Shown: positions 36,988 to 45,520 of the stretch, one piece after another
How positions within the stretch are numbered: the first letter of the stretch is position 1
Layout of the letters: each line of letters starts with the position of its first letter
DNA from: Candidatus Altimarinota bacterium
GTDB lineage: Bacteria > Patescibacteriota > Gracilibacteria > 1-14-2-50-48-13
Length of the DNA: 64,000 bases
NCBI GenBank assembly: GCA_046314355.1
Contig: JBKBWQ010000001.1
Span: forward strand, 1,024,001 to 1,088,000
Reading direction: 5' to 3'
Notes under the pieces: generated by a model
What the model saw: the letters and a program-made list of their open reading frames with translations, nothing else
Told to the model about the DNA's origin: nothing
Database searches by the model: none
Translations under genes and position numbers: made by a program

Positions 36988-37033
36988 TGGAGCCGCCACG
37001 GAGGATTGAACTCCGGGCCTCGTCCTTACCAAG
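36988..37033 (-). pseudogene. 3' half of host tRNA-Thr(GGT), displaced by integration (att junction)
   Basis: Minus strand CTTGGTAAGGACGAGGCCCGGAGTTCAATCCTCCGTGGCGGCTCCA: intact T-arm, acceptor 3' strand and CCA. Confidence 0.9.
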
Positions 37034-37299: not shown

Positions 37300-37491
37300 A
37301 TGGAATTTCTGCAAAACTTATTAAATGGTAACGAAGGAGTAATTGCCTTTTGCGGCATAATAATAACATTATTAGCTGGTGCTGGAGTTGTATGGTACTT
37401 GAAAAATAAACAAACTATAAAAAGTGGTAAAAAAAGTATAAATCAGCAAACCAATGTAGGAAATAATATAAATTCAGGAAATATTAAGTAA
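37300..37491 (+). CDS. 63-aa single-TM protein with C-terminal Q/N/S/G (amyloid-like) motif; putative effector
   Basis: TM VIAFCGIIITLLAGAGVVWYL followed by KQTIKSGKKSINQQTNVGNNIN; its stop overlaps the next start (TAATG). Confidence 0.75.
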   Translation: MEFLQNLLNGNEGVIAFCGIIITLLAGAGVVWYLKNKQTIKSGKKSINQQTNVGNNINSGNIK

Positions 37492-38054
37492 TGATATTCT
37501 CAAAACAATCCTCAGTATCAGGCGAAGGTTCCTTGACTCAACAAACTCAACAAGGGGACAATTATAGTTATAATAATTGTACCTTTTCTGGCGATGTAAA
37601 ACACGAACAAGAGGATTATGGAATAATTCAAGAAATTTTAGTTTATGCTTTAAGCAATATATCTGAAGGAGAAAATCCAATTGATGGTTACCTAAAGCTT
37701 AGAGATAAGATACAGCTAAATTTTCCTTCAGAAGATGAGCAAAAAATAGTAAATCAATATTTGACATGTGCATATATAAAATATCCGGCAATACAAGAGC
37801 AAATCAAATTGGCAGGTCCAGAAGTTGAGATACAGCTTCAAACACATATCTTTAGATTATATAGAAAATTATTTAAGGAAGGAAAAAATAATATTGATAT
37901 ACTTGAAGAGCTTTTTGACAATTTTGTATTGGTTGGAAAAAAACAGAACCCTGCTTATACTCAGATTGCTCAAGCATTTGTATTATTCTTCTTTGATGAC
38001 TGTACAATTTTTGAAAAAACTCCTCAGGATCAGCAATTAACTTTAAGTATGTAG
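37491..38054 (+). CDS. ABC-three-component (Lamassu LmuA-like) C-terminal-domain protein without an enzymatic effector
   Basis: KIQLNF and C-terminal FFFDDCTIFEK typical of ABC-3C CTDs; the N-terminus is only the ~30-aa motif KQSSVSGEGSLTQQTQQGDNY. Confidence 0.7.
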   Translation: MIFSKQSSVSGEGSLTQQTQQGDNYSYNNCTFSGDVKHEQEDYGIIQEILVYALSNISEGENPIDGYLKLRDKIQLNFPSEDEQKIVNQYLTCAYIKYPAIQEQIKLAGPEVEIQLQTHIFRLYRKLFKEGKNNIDILEELFDNFVLVGKKQNPAYTQIAQAFVLFFFDDCTIFEKTPQDQQLTLSM

Positions 38055-38055
38055 T

Positions 38056-38292
38056 ATGCTTATTCCATCAAAACATGAAGCACTTTCAAATAATACTTTA
38101 GTACTAGGCGCTCTAGTACTAAAAAAGATTAAAAAAGATACTTTTAATATTGAAGATCTATTTCAAAATCTCATCAAGTCAAATCTCATTTCACTTGATG
38201 ATTATTACGATACCCTTTCTTTTTTATGGTGTGCTGATTTGATTGAAGTTAAAAAATTACAAATAATCTTAAAAGAGAATGTTATTGCATAA
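38056..38292 (+). CDS. ABC-three-component middle component (LmuC-like)
   Basis: 78 aa, MLIPSKH..LVLGALVLK..IEDLF..DTLSFLW..DLIE pattern; lies between the CTD and ABC genes. Confidence 0.75.
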   Translation: MLIPSKHEALSNNTLVLGALVLKKIKKDTFNIEDLFQNLIKSNLISLDDYYDTLSFLWCADLIEVKKLQIILKENVIA

Positions 38293-40057
38293 ATTATATT
38301 TAGAACCACAAAGTTATTTTGAACCAATTGAGTTTAAATTGGGGTTTAATTTTATATATGCAAAGAAAGATCAAGCATCTGATAAAAAGAAATCACTAAA
38401 CGGAGTAGGAAAATCGTTATTATTAAACTTAATTGATTTTTGTCTACTTTCTTCAGAGACTGAGCATATTAAATCAGCAAAAAAGAATAATAACTTAGTA
38501 GGACACTATGTGGTACTAGAGTTTAGTGTTAATGGTGAGAATTATATTATTAAACGACCTTTCTATAAACCTAATCAATCTATTTTCTTTGGAAAGATTA
38601 ATGAAGAGTTATTAGAATATAAACACTCAGATGTACACAGAAACCTATCTCAGATGCTCTGTGATTTGATTTTTAAAACACCATATACAGGAAAATACTC
38701 AAATACATGGCTTAGAAAGTTGATGCCATTTTTCATGAAAATTCAATCAGGAAAAAATAAAGTTAACTTTAAGGATCCTATTAACTATCTGAGCTCAACA
38801 AAGGAAATGGAGCTTATTTCCTATCACTTATTTTTGTTAGGTATCGATAATAGCCTTTTTTTTAAGAACTTTGAAGTTATGTCCTTGCTTAAAGAAAAAA
38901 TACCCGCACTAGGGCAGGTAAAATCTTTGGTAACTGAATCATATGAGTTAGATGTTGATCAAGCTGAAAATGAAATCACAAAACTTAGGGGACAAATAAA
39001 AAAATTTGAAGATCAAATTGAAAAATTTAAACTAGCTAAACAGTATGAGAATGTTGAACAAGAAAGTAATGCTCTTACTGGGGAAATAAAGAAGTTACTT
39101 TTTGAGAACTATCAAACAAAGAAAAAAATTGAATCATATGAAGCAAGCTTTACTATTGATAACCATATCAATGTTACGAAAATTGCAAATGCATATAAGG
39201 ATTTAAATAAGCTATTAGCGGAAAATATTAAGAAGACACTAAATGAAGCAATTGCATTTCGTAAAAGCCTTGCTGAATCTAGAAAAGAATTTTTACGAGC
39301 AGAAATTAATGCTCTATTATTAGAATTGAAAGATAGAGAAGATCGTATGACAAAATTAGAGGAAGAAAGAGCTAGATTATTTCGTTTTCTTGATGCAGAC
39401 AAAGCAATTAATGAGTTGTCAGAAGCTTATTTAAATTTAGGTGAAAAGAAAACATACTTAGGAAAGATGGAAGGCACAATGAGAATTTATAGAGATCTCA
39501 AACGTGAAATTGCTGACCTAAATGCAAATGCTAATCAAATTTATGCAGAGATAGAAAGCCTCATGGATACTATTCAAATAACTTTAGATAGTTTTCGTTC
39601 ATTGTTCTTTGAAGTTCATGATGCTATATATACCGAAAACCCAGATCAGGCACAATTTATATTTAATACAAATCCTAAAAAAGACTCTAAATTAAATATT
39701 AACGTAGAATTACCCTCTGAGTTAGCATACGGAAAAAATAGAGGACGAACCTTAGTATATGATATCACCGTATTACTTCATCTAGTACAACAAAATATTA
39801 ATGCCCCTCATTTCTTAGTACATGACGGGATCTTTGATGGTATAGATAGATCACATTTTATTGCGCTCTATAATTATTTATCTACTAAGACCAAGGATTC
39901 TCAATTTCAATACATAATCACCTTTAATCAAGAAGGTACCGTAAAGGATCTAGATTTTGGTGAAGGTGCTGAAGAACTCACTACAAGACGCATTGAACAT
40001 GAAGCAATTATTACTTTGTCATCATCTAAACCTTTATTTGGGCATAAATGGAAGTAA
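38279..40057 (+). CDS. SMC-like ABC ATPase, DUF2326 family (Lamassu LmuB-like)
   Basis: Walker A NGVGKS, long coiled coil, degenerate signature YGKNRGR..YD, Walker B FLVHDG, QYIIT. Confidence 0.85.
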   Translation: MLLHKLYLEPQSYFEPIEFKLGFNFIYAKKDQASDKKKSLNGVGKSLLLNLIDFCLLSSETEHIKSAKKNNNLVGHYVVLEFSVNGENYIIKRPFYKPNQSIFFGKINEELLEYKHSDVHRNLSQMLCDLIFKTPYTGKYSNTWLRKLMPFFMKIQSGKNKVNFKDPINYLSSTKEMELISYHLFLLGIDNSLFFKNFEVMSLLKEKIPALGQVKSLVTESYELDVDQAENEITKLRGQIKKFEDQIEKFKLAKQYENVEQESNALTGEIKKLLFENYQTKKKIESYEASFTIDNHINVTKIANAYKDLNKLLAENIKKTLNEAIAFRKSLAESRKEFLRAEINALLLELKDREDRMTKLEEERARLFRFLDADKAINELSEAYLNLGEKKTYLGKMEGTMRIYRDLKREIADLNANANQIYAEIESLMDTIQITLDSFRSLFFEVHDAIYTENPDQAQFIFNTNPKKDSKLNINVELPSELAYGKNRGRTLVYDITVLLHLVQQNINAPHFLVHDGIFDGIDRSHFIALYNYLSTKTKDSQFQYIITFNQEGTVKDLDFGEGAEELTTRRIEHEAIITLSSSKPLFGHKWK

Positions 40058-40147: not shown

Positions 40148-40897
40148 TTATTGTGTTATGATGCAGGCTCGTGTTGAACCGTAGACACACTCTTGCTTAA
40201 GGTAGTCATAATACATAGGGCGAACTACAAGTGCGTAGAGAATACTCAATGTGATAATGACGCCGCAAATAAATACCCATAATGGTACAACTCGTTTTTT
40301 GTTAATGACAGATATCTTCTTAATTAAATCCTGAGACTTTGCTTTTAATTGAGGTAGTAAAGGAGGTTGACTCTTCTCTTCAGCAATAGGAATATTATTT
40401 TTTGCATAGTATGGATGTCGTAGACAGAAAATACTTCCTATAACTATCGCTATGTTAATTGCTCCTATGGGTCCACCGCCAGTGATAACAGTCCGAATAC
40501 ATTGATAGGCTATACTTAGCTTTAGAAATATTCTACTTCTCTTTCTGGTTATAAAAACTCCAACAATATCTAAAACAAAGAATGCTGTAGTAATCACAAT
40601 AAAGGTTGTCTTTGAACTTTCAGATATTCCTTTAAGATTTTGAAAAAAGTAAAGTCCTACAGCAAGTGTTAATATTCCAGAAATAAGGTAGGCAATACTC
40701 GTAAAAGTAGCTATACCCGGTAGAGTATTTTCATCTATGATTTTCTCCTCTTCTTTCTTTTTCTGAAATTCTTGGTTAATTTTCGATGCTGTTTCTTGAT
40801 TATATTCTTCACCTTTCATTTCTTCTCCACATTTCTGGCAGTATTGGTACTCATAGCTCTGTACATTGCCGCAGTGTAAGCATTTTTCTTCTTTCAT
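40148..40897 (-). CDS. membrane protein with N-terminal zinc ribbon
   Basis: CLHC..CQKC followed by about 5 TM helices. Confidence 0.7.
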   Translation of the reverse strand: MKEEKCLHCGNVQSYEYQYCQKCGEEMKGEEYNQETASKINQEFQKKKEEEKIIDENTLPGIATFTSIAYLISGILTLAVGLYFFQNLKGISESSKTTFIVITTAFFVLDIVGVFITRKRSRIFLKLSIAYQCIRTVITGGGPIGAINIAIVIGSIFCLRHPYYAKNNIPIAEEKSQPPLLPQLKAKSQDLIKKISVINKKRVVPLWVFICGVIITLSILYALVVRPMYYDYLKQECVYGSTRACIITQ

Positions 40898-40937: not shown

Positions 40938-41519
40938 CTAAAATAATTTCTGTGAATCATTTAAATTTGCTTCAAGAGCATCAGGTGACATATTGGCACG
41001 GAAATTCTCATCTTGCTTACACTTATGAGACGCATAGAGAAGATAAGCTCCTCCAAGTAAAAGAGTAATCAGTAGACCTATAGATTCTGTAATTCTTTGA
41101 TTTTCAAAAGAATCATTAAACTCTGAGTATGTACGTATGAGACCAAATATTCCTATCACGCACAGTACACACCATATAGCCTGAAGAACGAATGAAACAT
41201 TAGCCCATACATATCTTGTTCTGAAAAAACCTCGTGCTAATAATCCAAACACTACTGTAGCCGATAATGTTCCAATCATGTTCCAAACGTAAACTTCAAG
41301 TTTTGTGAGTATTCTCGAGGAAAGATCTACATTTTTAGGAAGAAAATTCCATTCTATTTGAACCTCTTTTCCTATATTAAAAAATATCCAAAGAAGGGAG
41401 AGAAAACTTATGATAGCAATTATCATATATACTATTCCCACTATTTTTGCCTCAATAGGAAGGGTCTTGAACTGTCTTCTCGCTGTTTTCGTTTCTGATG
41501 CTTTGAGGGTACTTGTCAT
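40938..41519 (-). CDS. hypothetical membrane protein (4 TM)
   Basis: Four hydrophobic helices; ATG at 41519. Confidence 0.7.
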   Translation of the reverse strand: MTSTLKASETKTARRQFKTLPIEAKIVGIVYMIIAIISFLSLLWIFFNIGKEVQIEWNFLPKNVDLSSRILTKLEVYVWNMIGTLSATVVFGLLARGFFRTRYVWANVSFVLQAIWCVLCVIGIFGLIRTYSEFNDSFENQRITESIGLLITLLLGGAYLLYASHKCKQDENFRANMSPDALEANLNDSQKLF

Positions 41520-41566
41520 AAAAAAACCTGTAAGAAATAATATACAGGATTGGTAGGATAGCAAAA

Positions 41567-43529: not shown

Positions 43530-44570
43530 ATGAAACTGAATACTCTTATACAGCTTTTCCCTCAAGATGAGTGGGATAAATACCATGTAATGGTCACTCA
43601 GGGACAAACTCCTCTTTGGAAATACTGGGAAGAGTATGTTACGAGACAACTAGACTTGGGAGGTTCTATGCAAACACTTCAGAACGTCCGCAGTACAATG
43701 CAATTTATTGTAAGACACATGAATATATATAGCATTGAAGAATGTAATAATCAAAATACATTTGAAGATCGATTAATTGATGTGAAGAAGGAAAGAAGAC
43801 ACTCAGGAAGTACTACTAATACAATCTTGAAAAATATAAAAACATACTTTATATGGTTACGCAGAAGAGAATACATACTTGAAAATAAATTGGATTTAGT
43901 CCAGAAGTCTAAAACTGTGAAAAATGCACAAGTAGCCTTCTCAAAAGAACAAGTATTGTATATTCAAGAAGCGATATTGAATCAAACGCATACACCTTTA
44001 ATAACAATGCGTAATTTCCTATTTATAAAACTTCTTGCTCTAACAGGTGCACGCCCAAGTGAACTCCTTAACCTGAAAGCTTCATCACTAGAGAAAACGT
44101 CTATAGGAGATTACGTCTTAAAAATCACTGGAGTAAAACAGATTACAAAACCAAGAGTATATCATATCAAAGATCTTATCTTTGCCCAAATATTTGAAAG
44201 CTATATGAGTCATCGTGCCAAAATAGGTCGTAGTGATGAGGCATTATTTATATCGTCCTCTATGAAAGGACCGTGGACATATCAAGGATTACGAAAACTC
44301 TTTGCTAGTATTGCAAAAAAAGTAGGTTTTCAGGTGACTGCTTACGGTTTCAGAAGATATGTGGCAACAAATCTTCATACCCAAAGACTTCCAATTGAAA
44401 AAATTGCTCAGCACCTAGGACACACTCGTTTATCTACTACGATGCTGTATATCCAAAATAGTACTGAGCATACTTTAGAAGCAATGACTATGTTAGAATC
44501 GAATTTAATGAGTGCATCTCCACTGACTTTGCCATCTGCATATTCGAACAAGAAAGATAAATGGTTGTAG
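43530..44570 (+). CDS. tyrosine recombinase/integrase (variant YxxR)
   Basis: TGARPSE, YGFRR, LGH, TTMLY. Confidence 0.88.
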   Translation: MKLNTLIQLFPQDEWDKYHVMVTQGQTPLWKYWEEYVTRQLDLGGSMQTLQNVRSTMQFIVRHMNIYSIEECNNQNTFEDRLIDVKKERRHSGSTTNTILKNIKTYFIWLRRREYILENKLDLVQKSKTVKNAQVAFSKEQVLYIQEAILNQTHTPLITMRNFLFIKLLALTGARPSELLNLKASSLEKTSIGDYVLKITGVKQITKPRVYHIKDLIFAQIFESYMSHRAKIGRSDEALFISSSMKGPWTYQGLRKLFASIAKKVGFQVTAYGFRRYVATNLHTQRLPIEKIAQHLGHTRLSTTMLYIQNSTEHTLEAMTMLESNLMSASPLTLPSAYSNKKDKWL

Positions 44571-45402
44571 TAGTGATCCTCGCATGCCCCATAAGTTTTG
44601 AAAGAGTATAAATATCACATCCTCCTTCCAGCATAAGTCTGGCAAAAGCATGGCGTAGTGTGTGAGCTGAGAAAGGTATCTTCAATCGTTCACGAATAAC
44701 TTTAATGTTATTTGTAATCGCTCTTTTCGTTATTCCTAGGTCTTTCTGTACCGCTGTAAAAAAGAAAATGGAACTCTTCTTCAGACGATTCCTGTCCTTT
44801 AGATATTCTTCTAGAATGCTACATAGCTTCATATTCATAGGTATCATTCGATCCTTTGATCCCTTCCCCTGATGAATAAAGATAGTTCTGCTTTCAAATG
44901 ATACATCATGCAGCTTCAAGTGAACCACTTCAGAGATTCGGAGACCTGCTAAAAGCATCAATGCAAGCATCGCCCTGTTCCTGAATTTCTCAAACTTATA
45001 CGGGTACTTCATATGATAAGACATATCAAGAATAAGTGTACTCTCCTCCTTCGTAAGAGTCTTTGGCAACCTCTGTTCCATCTTTGGGAGCTCTATATCC
45101 GCAAGGATATTTTTCTCTACGATACTCTCTTTCACTAGCCACTTAAAAAAGGCATTAAATCGCTTGTGGTAGTGTCGGAAGGTTGCGGAGGTCCATTTAC
45201 GCTCTAGTCGTCCATGAAAGAACCATGCCTCAAATAAAGGCTTTGTAAGTTCTTCAAGATAAACTACCTTTGTTGAGCTCACAAAGTAGCGAAAGATTTC
45301 TCTGTAGCTTTTAATTGTTTCAGGTGCATAATTCCGAATACATACGCAATACTGCAAGTAGCGCTCAAGCAGGTTTTTAAGATCTGTTTTTTGTCCGTAC
45401 AT
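44488..45402 (-). CDS. tyrosine recombinase/integrase (XerC/D-like)
   Basis: AGLRISE, GKGSKDR, HTLRH, LMGH, TTTIY; ATG at 45402. Confidence 0.93.
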   Translation of the reverse strand: MYGQKTDLKNLLERYLQYCVCIRNYAPETIKSYREIFRYFVSSTKVVYLEELTKPLFEAWFFHGRLERKWTSATFRHYHKRFNAFFKWLVKESIVEKNILADIELPKMEQRLPKTLTKEESTLILDMSYHMKYPYKFEKFRNRAMLALMLLAGLRISEVVHLKLHDVSFESRTIFIHQGKGSKDRMIPMNMKLCSILEEYLKDRNRLKKSSIFFFTAVQKDLGITKRAITNNIKVIRERLKIPFSAHTLRHAFARLMLEGGCDIYTLSKLMGHARITTTTIYLSCSNMQMAKSVEMHSLNSILT

Positions 45403-45445
45403 TAAAAAGAAGAGAAGAAATATAATCTTCACTCTTGAATAGACC

Positions 45446-45520
45446 TGGAGCCACCGGAGGGACTTGAACCCTCGACCTACCCCTTACCATGGGGTTGCTC
45501 TACCACTGAGCTACGACGGC
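45446..45520 (-). tRNA. tRNA-Thr(GGT), complete, inside the element
   Basis: GCCGTCG-TA-GCTC AGTGGTA GAGC-A-ACCCC ATGGTAA GGGGT-AGGTC-GAGGG TTCAAGT CCCTC-CGGTGGC-T-CCA. Confidence 0.95.

Follow-up and report, generated by a model that had tools for sequence, protein, structure and literature searches.

How does a Lamassu-type defence operon work when its LmuA-like protein seems to lack an effector domain? This question is raised by the locus at positions 37,300 to 40,057 of the 64,000-nucleotide stretch of Candidatus Altimarinota DNA analysed here (the window). The first gene of the locus encodes a small peptide with a predicted transmembrane (TM) helix and the second gene encodes the LmuA-like protein, and the C-terminal tail of the former and the N-terminal head of the latter carry a common motif rich in Gly, Asn and Gln. 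The best explanation, to which we give slightly better than an even chance, is that the locus is a four-gene short-Lamassu/ABC-3C defence operon with a motif-coupled membrane peptide effector that acts through amyloid-like assembly.

The window operon consists of four collinear genes on the plus strand. The membrane peptide gene (37300..37491, +), which encodes 63 amino acids (aa) from an ATG and whose product is the proposed effector, overlaps by one base, in the sequence TAATG, with the gene for the LmuA-like protein (37491..38054, +; 187 aa), which combines the N-terminal motif with a C-terminal domain (CTD) of the ABC-3C CTD10/11 type. The gene for the putative middle component, which is LmuC-like or MC6-like (38056..38292, +; 78 aa), and that for an SMC-like ABC ATPase, which is LmuB-like and belongs to DUF2326 (38279..40057, +; 592 aa), follow downstream. 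The ATPase matches the PADLOC profile PDC-M68B with an E-value of 2.5e-68 and LmuB with 1.1e-16 over aa 3-550, scores 74.5 bits against Pfam DUF2326 (cut-off 28.7), and carries in its translation the Walker A sequence NGVGKS at aa 41-46. A comparison with PDB sequences gave no match to the ATPase at E ≤ 0.01, and it is far by sequence from the solved LmuB structures. The 78-aa protein resembles Pfam MC6, with an E-value of 3.8e-5 and 24 bits, under the cut-off of 27.2 bits. An open reading frame (ORF) of 73-85 aa beginning with M[LI]IP[ST]KH stands at the position of the middle component in nearly all related loci, and an ATPase ORF of ~580-600 aa (~590) lies downstream of it in nearly every one.

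The assignment of the LmuA-like protein depends on its C-terminal part. PADLOC profile PDC-M68A matches it with an E-value of 5.2e-6, with the 118 C-terminal residues aligned to the last 116 of the 253 profile positions, and the N-terminal part of the profile finds no counterpart in the window protein. The window protein itself has no Pfam match at E ≤ 1; five of seven relatives match Pfam CTD10, and a further relative, P0068, detected with the family profile (3.8e-21), exceeds the CTD11 cut-off (33.2 vs 27.7 bits). A search of PDB sequences with the CTD profile returned chance-level matches only (E ≥ 0.26), and NCBIfam holds no family for any of the four operon proteins, a match to TrlF being at chance level. 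The PADLOC and Pfam matches of the window proteins and their relatives support an operon of the ABC-3C/short (type II) Lamassu type, in line with the first-pass annotation of this DNA, which had been made from the letters and ORFs alone. Both PDC-M68 A and PDC-M68 B, which together form a candidate defence system, are matched by the operon. The 43 residues ahead of the conserved CTD core of the LmuA-like protein contain no Pfam domain; this protein thus has no N-terminal effector domain and thereby departs from the canonical short Lamassu. The same absence of an effector domain had been proposed at the first pass.

At its N-terminus, the CTD protein carries a motif (aa 5-37; 37503..37601, +) that matches the G/N/Q-rich motif at the C-terminus of the peptide (aa 37-63; 37408..37488, +), which was delimited by alignment with the head of the CTD protein. 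The best ungapped 20-mer pairs peptide aa 37-56 with CTD-protein aa 5-24 at 10/20 identical residues; this alignment and the TAATG overlap are exactly as first described. A 10/20 match was reached in none of 2000 shuffles of the whole proteins and in none of 2000 shuffles restricted to the two low-complexity ends, the maximum being 9 in either case. The gapped local alignment scores 54 with BLOSUM62, compared with a shuffle mean of 20.9 (standard deviation 4.2, maximum 47; 0/5000 reach the observed score), and runs on to the peptide's final residues (SGNIK aligned with SGDVK) over a 6-residue insertion in the CTD protein. The motif-coding DNA segments of the window pair are identical at 31/60 nucleotides (nt), and the same codon is used at 4/10 identical residues, indicating that the likeness lies at the protein level. 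For the same reasons, a recent DNA duplication in the window is rejected. Since both segments are compositionally biased and the G+C content of the window is 36%, it might be supposed that two Q/N-rich ends of low complexity resemble each other by chance in a genome rich in AT and that the small ORF is spurious, and it is the composition-preserving shuffles given above and the comparison of related loci that speak against such a chance resemblance.

A word-indexed search found 6 relatives, and 184 relatives of the CTD protein were recovered at E ≤ 1e-3 when 1.84 billion representatives were searched with a profile. Of the 149 that are listed apart from the window protein, 65 are 150-224 aa long, 61 are 275-349 aa long, 13 are fragments and 10 have other lengths. 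Nearly all short-form relatives begin with a G/N/Q/D-rich stretch, and none of them in the representative library has a TM helix. The genomic neighbourhood was surveyed at 55 loci, namely the window, 18 loci in genomes of species and 36 on contigs of metagenomes. Of these, 38 represent the short form and have upstream DNA, 14 represent the long or fused form, and the other 3 give no information: L052 and L053 break off at the edge of a contig, and the frame of L055 is broken. A small same-strand ORF ends beside the start of the CTD gene in 38/38 short-form loci with upstream DNA. In each case the encoded peptide starts with a short N-terminal segment, continues with a single hydrophobic helix and a basic stretch, and ends in a motif that matches the head of the protein next to it. 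The distance from the small ORF to the CTD gene is between -23 and +17 nt in 36 of 37 loci and +126 nt in the remaining one, L032; in the 38th short form, L042, the CTD gene has a non-ATG start, and the small ORF and the motif are both present. The first-pass annotation had linked the small TM ORF to the LmuA-like protein by the common motif and had named the conservation of the upstream ORF in homologous operons as a check; the shuffles and the 38/38 loci bear out both.

The hosts of these loci include members of Bacteroidota (Flavobacterium, Winogradskyella, Kordia, Flagellimonas, Hymenobacter, Solirubrum and Mucilaginibacter), bacteria of the candidate phyla radiation (CPR; Staskawiczbacteria and Saccharibacteria) and archaea (a Methanobacteriaceae archaeon, Nanoarchaeota and Pacearchaeota). 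A scan of viral contigs found no relative. A uniform recoding event, either a frameshift or a readthrough, that joins the two ORFs was considered and rejected, because the offset between the motif copies modulo 3 is 0, 1 and 2 across loci. At L055, positions 1-170 contain a short tandem duplication in all frames next to the broken CTD frame, and this locus stays outside all counts. Nearly the same four-gene operon of one clade, clade A (L002, L003/L028 and L004/L033), is recorded in metagenome-assembled genomes of a Methanobacteriaceae archaeon, of Staskawiczbacteria and of Saccharibacteria, reflecting either inter-domain transfer or a binning error.

The small ORF is predicted to encode a single-pass membrane peptide with a cytoplasmic tail. 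Its ATG at 37300 is backed by alignment with 28 homologous small ORFs. The predicted TM helix spans approximately aa 13-34 (37336..37401, +), with a maximal Kyte-Doolittle (KD) 19-mer average of 2.45. No Lys or Arg residue precedes this helix and five are found in the 15 residues behind it, and this asymmetry is common to 36/36 peptides scored, from which an N-out, C-in topology that places the tail in the cytoplasm is predicted. The 36 peptides are 51-79 aa long with 0-16 residues ahead of the single TM helix, and their maximal KD value is at least 1.75 in 35, the value for L018 being 1.39; the L004 peptide is cut by the contig edge. The window peptide has no Pfam match. A search with the peptide profile found 28 small peptides, whose source names, where given, are 'hypothetical protein', and two entries from JGI are named 'uncharacterized membrane protein YfcA'. 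Among 8000 candidates, no longer protein containing the small peptide was found at E ≤ 0.01, which is weak evidence; the protein P0185, described below, shows that fusions exist. Asn (17.6%), Gly (11.1%) and Gln (8.9%) are frequent in the homologous tails and Leu (1.1%) and Pro (0.9%) are rare; tails and heads alike show an enrichment of N, G, Q and I and a depletion of L and P. Across 34 pairs of clade-A orthologues, the ratio of non-synonymous to synonymous differences (pN/pS) of the small ORF lies at 0.11-0.40, and hence the small ORF is under purifying selection. Purifying selection and the recurrence of the ORF and the motif in 38/38 loci, including L042, refute a chance resemblance of two biased ends, for which the probability left is negligible.

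The motif differs between loci and does so in both partners together. Approximately 7 motif classes can be distinguished, and in each of them both partners carry the motif of the class; examples are QKQKGGDNSTNIQAGRD, GDDNITSGRDT, NTQVGxGNQNVQ, the KQxxxSGxxSxxQQTxxGxN pattern of the window and three singletons. Clustering of the CTD domains at 70% identity left 17 non-redundant pairs. The summed score of the true pairs is 107.4, compared with 60.4 ± 7.0 for permuted pairs, and with BLOSUM62 the corresponding sums are 932 and 530 ± 47; neither observed value was reached in 100000 permutations. The classes thus co-vary, which had been the second check named at the first pass. Because these permutations ignore relatedness, the approximately 7 independent classes are the safer measure. 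For single pairs, z-scores range from 2.4 to 12.1, and 14 of the 17 true-pair scores were reached by 0/1000 shuffles. The best match of the motif is its own partner for the window, L011, L018, L019 and L050.

The likeness between the two motif copies is maintained in two ways. The DNA copies are nearly identical in L033 (58/60 nt, and 51/51 over the core), L004 (57/60), L021 (56/63) and L026 (51/57), while in a comparison of L003 with L033 the orthologous copies have only 47% of third codon positions in common. Since near-identity within a locus coexists with this degree of divergence between orthologues, the motif copies have been homogenised by gene conversion in some loci. The direction of conversion seems to be from the peptide copy to the CTD copy, which has STNIQ in place of SVNLQ. 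Seen along the loci, the two motif-coding segments show concerted evolution in L033 (positions 686-1424), L004, L021 and L026 compared with L003. The same codon is used at identical residues in 5/15 cases in L002, 4/13 in L029, 5/13 in L032 and 4/10 in L018, and third-position identity is at a random level in L002 (0.41), L029 (0.35) and L032 (0.29). The motif is nevertheless kept, with z-scores of 8-12 for the window, L002, L032 and L018 (L029 lies outside the scoring). Retention of the residues at a random level of third-position and codon identity shows that protein-level selection keeps the motif likeness in these other lineages.

These data bear on the possibility that the arrangement is an evolutionary relic, in which an ancestral TM-motif-CTD gene was split by tandem duplication of the motif segment and the copies have since been homogenised with no functional interaction between the two motifs; the peptide and the CTD protein would then cooperate, if at all, in some other way. 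The near-identical DNA copies in L004, L033, L021 and L026 fit such an origin, and a deletion between the repeats would yield exactly the fusion P0185. But several lineages retain the residues while their synonymous sites are randomised, and the arrangement has lasted in 17 clusters with less than 70% identity to one another, spread over Bacteroidota, CPR bacteria and three lineages of archaea, although unselected direct repeats 43-97 nt apart should vanish by deletion or drift. A relic of this kind is therefore very improbable.

P0185 (219 aa, on a 1352-nt contig) unites in one chain a TM helix and a basic linker with a single motif copy and a full CTD, and P0147 (128 aa) is its truncated cluster mate. 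P0185 has the form expected of a deletion between two direct repeats, and such a natural fusion shows that peptide and CTD protein are parts of the same functional unit. In the long forms, the CTD is preceded by effector domains of the HNH, SMEK, SIR2 and trypsin types: HNH_2 was detected in 3 of the first 7 relatives, and SMEK_N (1.7e-31), SIR2_2 (4.7e-25) and trypsin (8.6e-7) were also found. A matching small ORF was found at 0/10 fused-form loci tested; two of the ten, L034 and L054, have no same-strand upstream ORF at all, and the upstream DNA of L034 is just 262 nt long. The linkers of the fused forms score against the motif no better than shuffled sequences (median 30 vs 30; 1/50 above the shuffle maximum), and their composition is N 9.9%, G 4.8% and L 10.1%, compared with N 16.4%, G 9.3% and L 3.4% in the heads of the short forms. 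In a minority of fused relatives, mostly of the HNH type, a motif-like G/N/Q-rich linker does stand between the effector domain and the CTD; these are P0036, P0033, P0075, P0009, P0041, P0078, P0068, P0106 and P0011, and L005, L006 and L054. In these proteins the motif may act in cis, or the fusions may derive from split ancestors. Several fused forms (L007/L035, L038, L039, L045/L046 and L057) share an N-terminal domain of ~150 aa with a signature of the (M/K/S)(G/S)NDGY type, which has no Pfam match in the two scanned (L007 and L039) and is presumably a further effector type of this Lamassu subfamily.

The approximately 10 of 50 fused relatives that keep a motif-like linker with no partner peptide would be understandable if both motifs bound one pocket on a third component, such as the LmuB-like ATPase, the LmuC-like protein or some factor of host or phage origin. 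The tail and the head would then compete for this pocket or be handed over from one to the other, and would be alike through their common receptor. Co-variation at the level of clades is also what co-evolution with a clade-specific third partner would produce. A shared docking site of this kind is improbable, however, because most fused relatives have no motif, so that the motif tracks the split architecture and not the LmuB/LmuC core that is present in both forms, and no candidate pocket was identified.

The place of the peptide gene suggests how the operon may work. This gene sits where an effector domain would be, and the peptide is the only other gene product with the common motif. Partners that share a sequence bear the signature of a homotypic interaction; an ordinary heterodimer interface needs no such sharing. 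In the canonical systems, the C-terminal oligomerisation domain of LmuA is held by LmuB2-LmuC, and LmuA, once freed, tetramerises and thereby activates its N-terminal effector (10.1101/2025.03.14.643221; 10.1101/2025.04.02.646746). Release and tetramerisation of this kind would supply the clustering step. The Bab/Agp system shows that a common motif of 20 residues is able to switch on a membrane effector during phage defence (10.1101/2024.11.07.622273).

We infer from these lines that the motifs bind each other, that the assembly is of cross-beta nature and that it damages the membrane in the course of defence; amyloid-like templating is the mechanism that fits best. The N-terminal effector domain of LmuA would have been replaced by a G/N/Q-rich motif of ~20-30 residues, and the effector would be encoded apart as the 63-aa single-pass peptide with its N-terminus outside and a basic cytoplasmic tail ending in the common motif. 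The LmuB-like ATPase and the LmuC-like protein would restrain the CTD protein until foreign DNA is sensed, upon which the CTD protein would be freed and oligomerise through its CTD. The N-terminal motifs gathered in this way would nucleate a homotypic beta-sheet (amyloid-like) assembly that recruits the motifs of the peptide tails, and the TM helices would cluster, resulting in permeabilisation of the membrane and abortive infection. Somewhat more tentatively, at a little less than an even chance, 'effector-less' short Lamassu may form a widespread class in which oligomers of the LmuA CTD act as a prion-like seed that converts the tails of one-helix peptides and kills the cell. If so, the peptide would be the smallest known amyloid-controlled death effector, amyloid signalling would for the first time be placed downstream of a DNA sensor of the SMC family, and such signalling would be proven to be untied from NLRs and from multicellular microbes.

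Several observations weigh against templated amyloid assembly. Co-variation holds at the level of clades only, the own partner being the top match for 8-9 of the 17 tails and 7-10 of the 17 heads, and gene conversion yields part of it, so that such likeness can arise with no selection for matching. The window pair is just 50% identical, with KK facing EG. The tails are rich in Lys (12.9%), whereas BASS motifs are reported to be depleted of it. The peptide has no Bell/HeLo-type domain, and it is hard to see in what arrangement a cross-beta stack would hold single TM helices. The motif-like linkers in cis in approximately 10/50 fused relatives hint that the motif may have a role that needs no partner. 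Finally, PADLOC knows the subfamily only as the candidate system PDC-M68.

Some of these observations suit a constitutive tether better, in which a stable, non-amyloid heteromeric beta-zipper anchors the CTD protein and the Lamassu-like complex at the membrane with no templating; activation would then cluster pre-bound peptides, or membrane localisation would be the function itself. The K-rich tails and the 50% identity of the window pair suit in-register self-stacking poorly, the permanent covalent link in P0185 shows that function tolerates a constant connection, and the 38/38 pairing, the cytoplasmic tail and the existence of P0185 fit a tether equally. However, a stable heterodimer needs no common sequence, yet every clade shares one and gene conversion homogenises it. 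In the solved Lamassu complexes, moreover, the LmuA CTD is sequestered and the N-terminal part makes no visible contacts (10.1101/2025.03.14.643221), and in an operon with no enzymatic effector the peptide would still need activation. A constitutive tether is accordingly unlikely.

Motif-coupled effector activation of the amyloid type is already known; new here would be a sensor of the Lamassu type, an effector with a single helix and the range of hosts. Bab/Agp of E. coli ECOR25, with motif BASS11, is the nearest precedent (10.1101/2024.11.07.622273). It also consists of two adjacent genes, has a small effector with an N-terminal hydrophobic helix, carries a motif of ~20 residues at the C-terminus of the effector and the N-terminus of the sensor side, and causes abortive infection via the membrane. 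It differs in that the Agp sensor is of the TPR-GreA/B-C-PIN kind and not a Lamassu sensor, that Bab has a folded Bell-type helical domain (109 aa) whereas the effector here is one TM helix and a tail (51-79 aa), and that the motif is borne by the sensor itself in Bab/Agp and by an adaptor, the LmuA CTD, here. The paper contains no mention of ABC, SMC or Lamassu.

The motifs BASS1-10 of bacterial Bell/NLR pairs and the fungal HET-S/NWD2 pair resemble the present system in having the motif at the C-terminus of the effector and the N-terminus of the receptor, encoded by collinear adjacent or overlapping genes (10.1101/2020.01.06.895854). These systems also share an N/Q/G-rich composition, the occurrence of 'all-in-one' fused counterparts and receptor oligomerisation as the proposed trigger (10.1101/2020.01.06.895854); the fused counterparts here are the HNH-, SMEK-, SIR2- and trypsin-CTD fusions and the TM-motif-CTD protein P0185. 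BASS motifs are reported there to be ~20-25 residues long, enriched in N, Q, G, V and I and depleted of K, P and L (10.1101/2020.01.06.895854). In these systems the receptors are NACHT or NB-ARC NLRs and the effectors are Bell/HeLo proteins, whereas an ABC-3C CTD protein and a one-helix peptide take their places here, and the reported restriction of BASS motifs to multicellular Actinobacteria and Cyanobacteria contrasts with the hosts of the present operon, which are Bacteroidota and CPR bacteria as well as a methanogen and DPANN archaea. Bab/Agp shows that the requirement for an NLR is not universal.

The short Lamassu systems described by Haudiquet et al. have the same gene order of LmuA-CTD, LmuC and LmuB with an LmuB of ~600 aa, and the effectors found specifically in short Lamassu, HNH and SMEK, also occur in the fused relatives here. 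Haudiquet et al. also noted an effector-less LmuA clade, Clade O, which we infer to be the family studied here; their text does not mention 'membrane', 'transmembrane' or a small upstream gene. The titles and abstracts (or abstract openings) of the papers listed on Lamassu, LmuA and ABC-3C, in a survey that did not include the ABC-3C-defining paper of Krishnan et al. 2020, describe no coupling to an amyloid or a membrane peptide. The novelty suggested at the first pass accordingly stands as far as Lamassu is concerned, and has to be narrowed in that antiphage amyloid signalling had already been described for Bab/Agp (10.1101/2024.11.07.622273).

The proposed coupling would explain how a Lamassu clade seemingly devoid of an effector still works. 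A DNA sensor of the SMC/Rad50 type would join the few receptors that signal by a common peptide motif (NLRs and the TGP protein Agp), and motif-based signalling, probably of amyloid nature, would reach archaea as well as unicellular bacteria whose genomes are tiny, contrary to the reported multicellular restriction. The TM effectors of CBASS and Pycsar are also small, span the membrane and are thought to kill by clustering in it after activation; they are switched on by nucleotide second messengers that bind to a sensor domain of the effector, whereas the link here would be the common peptide motif. With a peptide of 51-79 aa and a motif of ~20 residues, the system is minimal and would be an attractive model of how oligomerisation of a sensor leads to membrane damage; the natural motif classes offer ready specificity swaps, and the natural fused form offers a control. 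More generally, small ORFs beside defence operons can be a missing component.

Around the operon, a diverged tRNA-Thr-like 3' half reaching from the anticodon loop to CCA lies at 36988-37031 on the minus strand, and an intact tRNA-Thr(GGT) lies at 45446-45520, also on the minus strand, with tyrosine recombinase genes beside it at 43530-44570 (+) and 44488-45432 (-). The two tRNA features bracket the operon, which suggests an integrated island of ~8.4 kb; an exact attachment-site repeat of the tRNA-Thr was not found, the longest exact match being 12 nt. Inside the putative island, two multi-pass membrane proteins of no known family are encoded convergently to the operon at 40148-40897 (-) and 40938-41564 (-), one of them with an N-terminal zinc-ribbon-like CxxC...CxxC pattern, and they are not conserved beside related operons. 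Of 401 genomes sampled in the phylum of the window, 2 have the CTD family, the window's own genome included; the count for a flavobacterial family is 3 of 401, and the two new matches there are distant longer forms. The operon is therefore a sporadic accessory system, and its sparse occurrence and location in a putative island fit an accessory defence gene.

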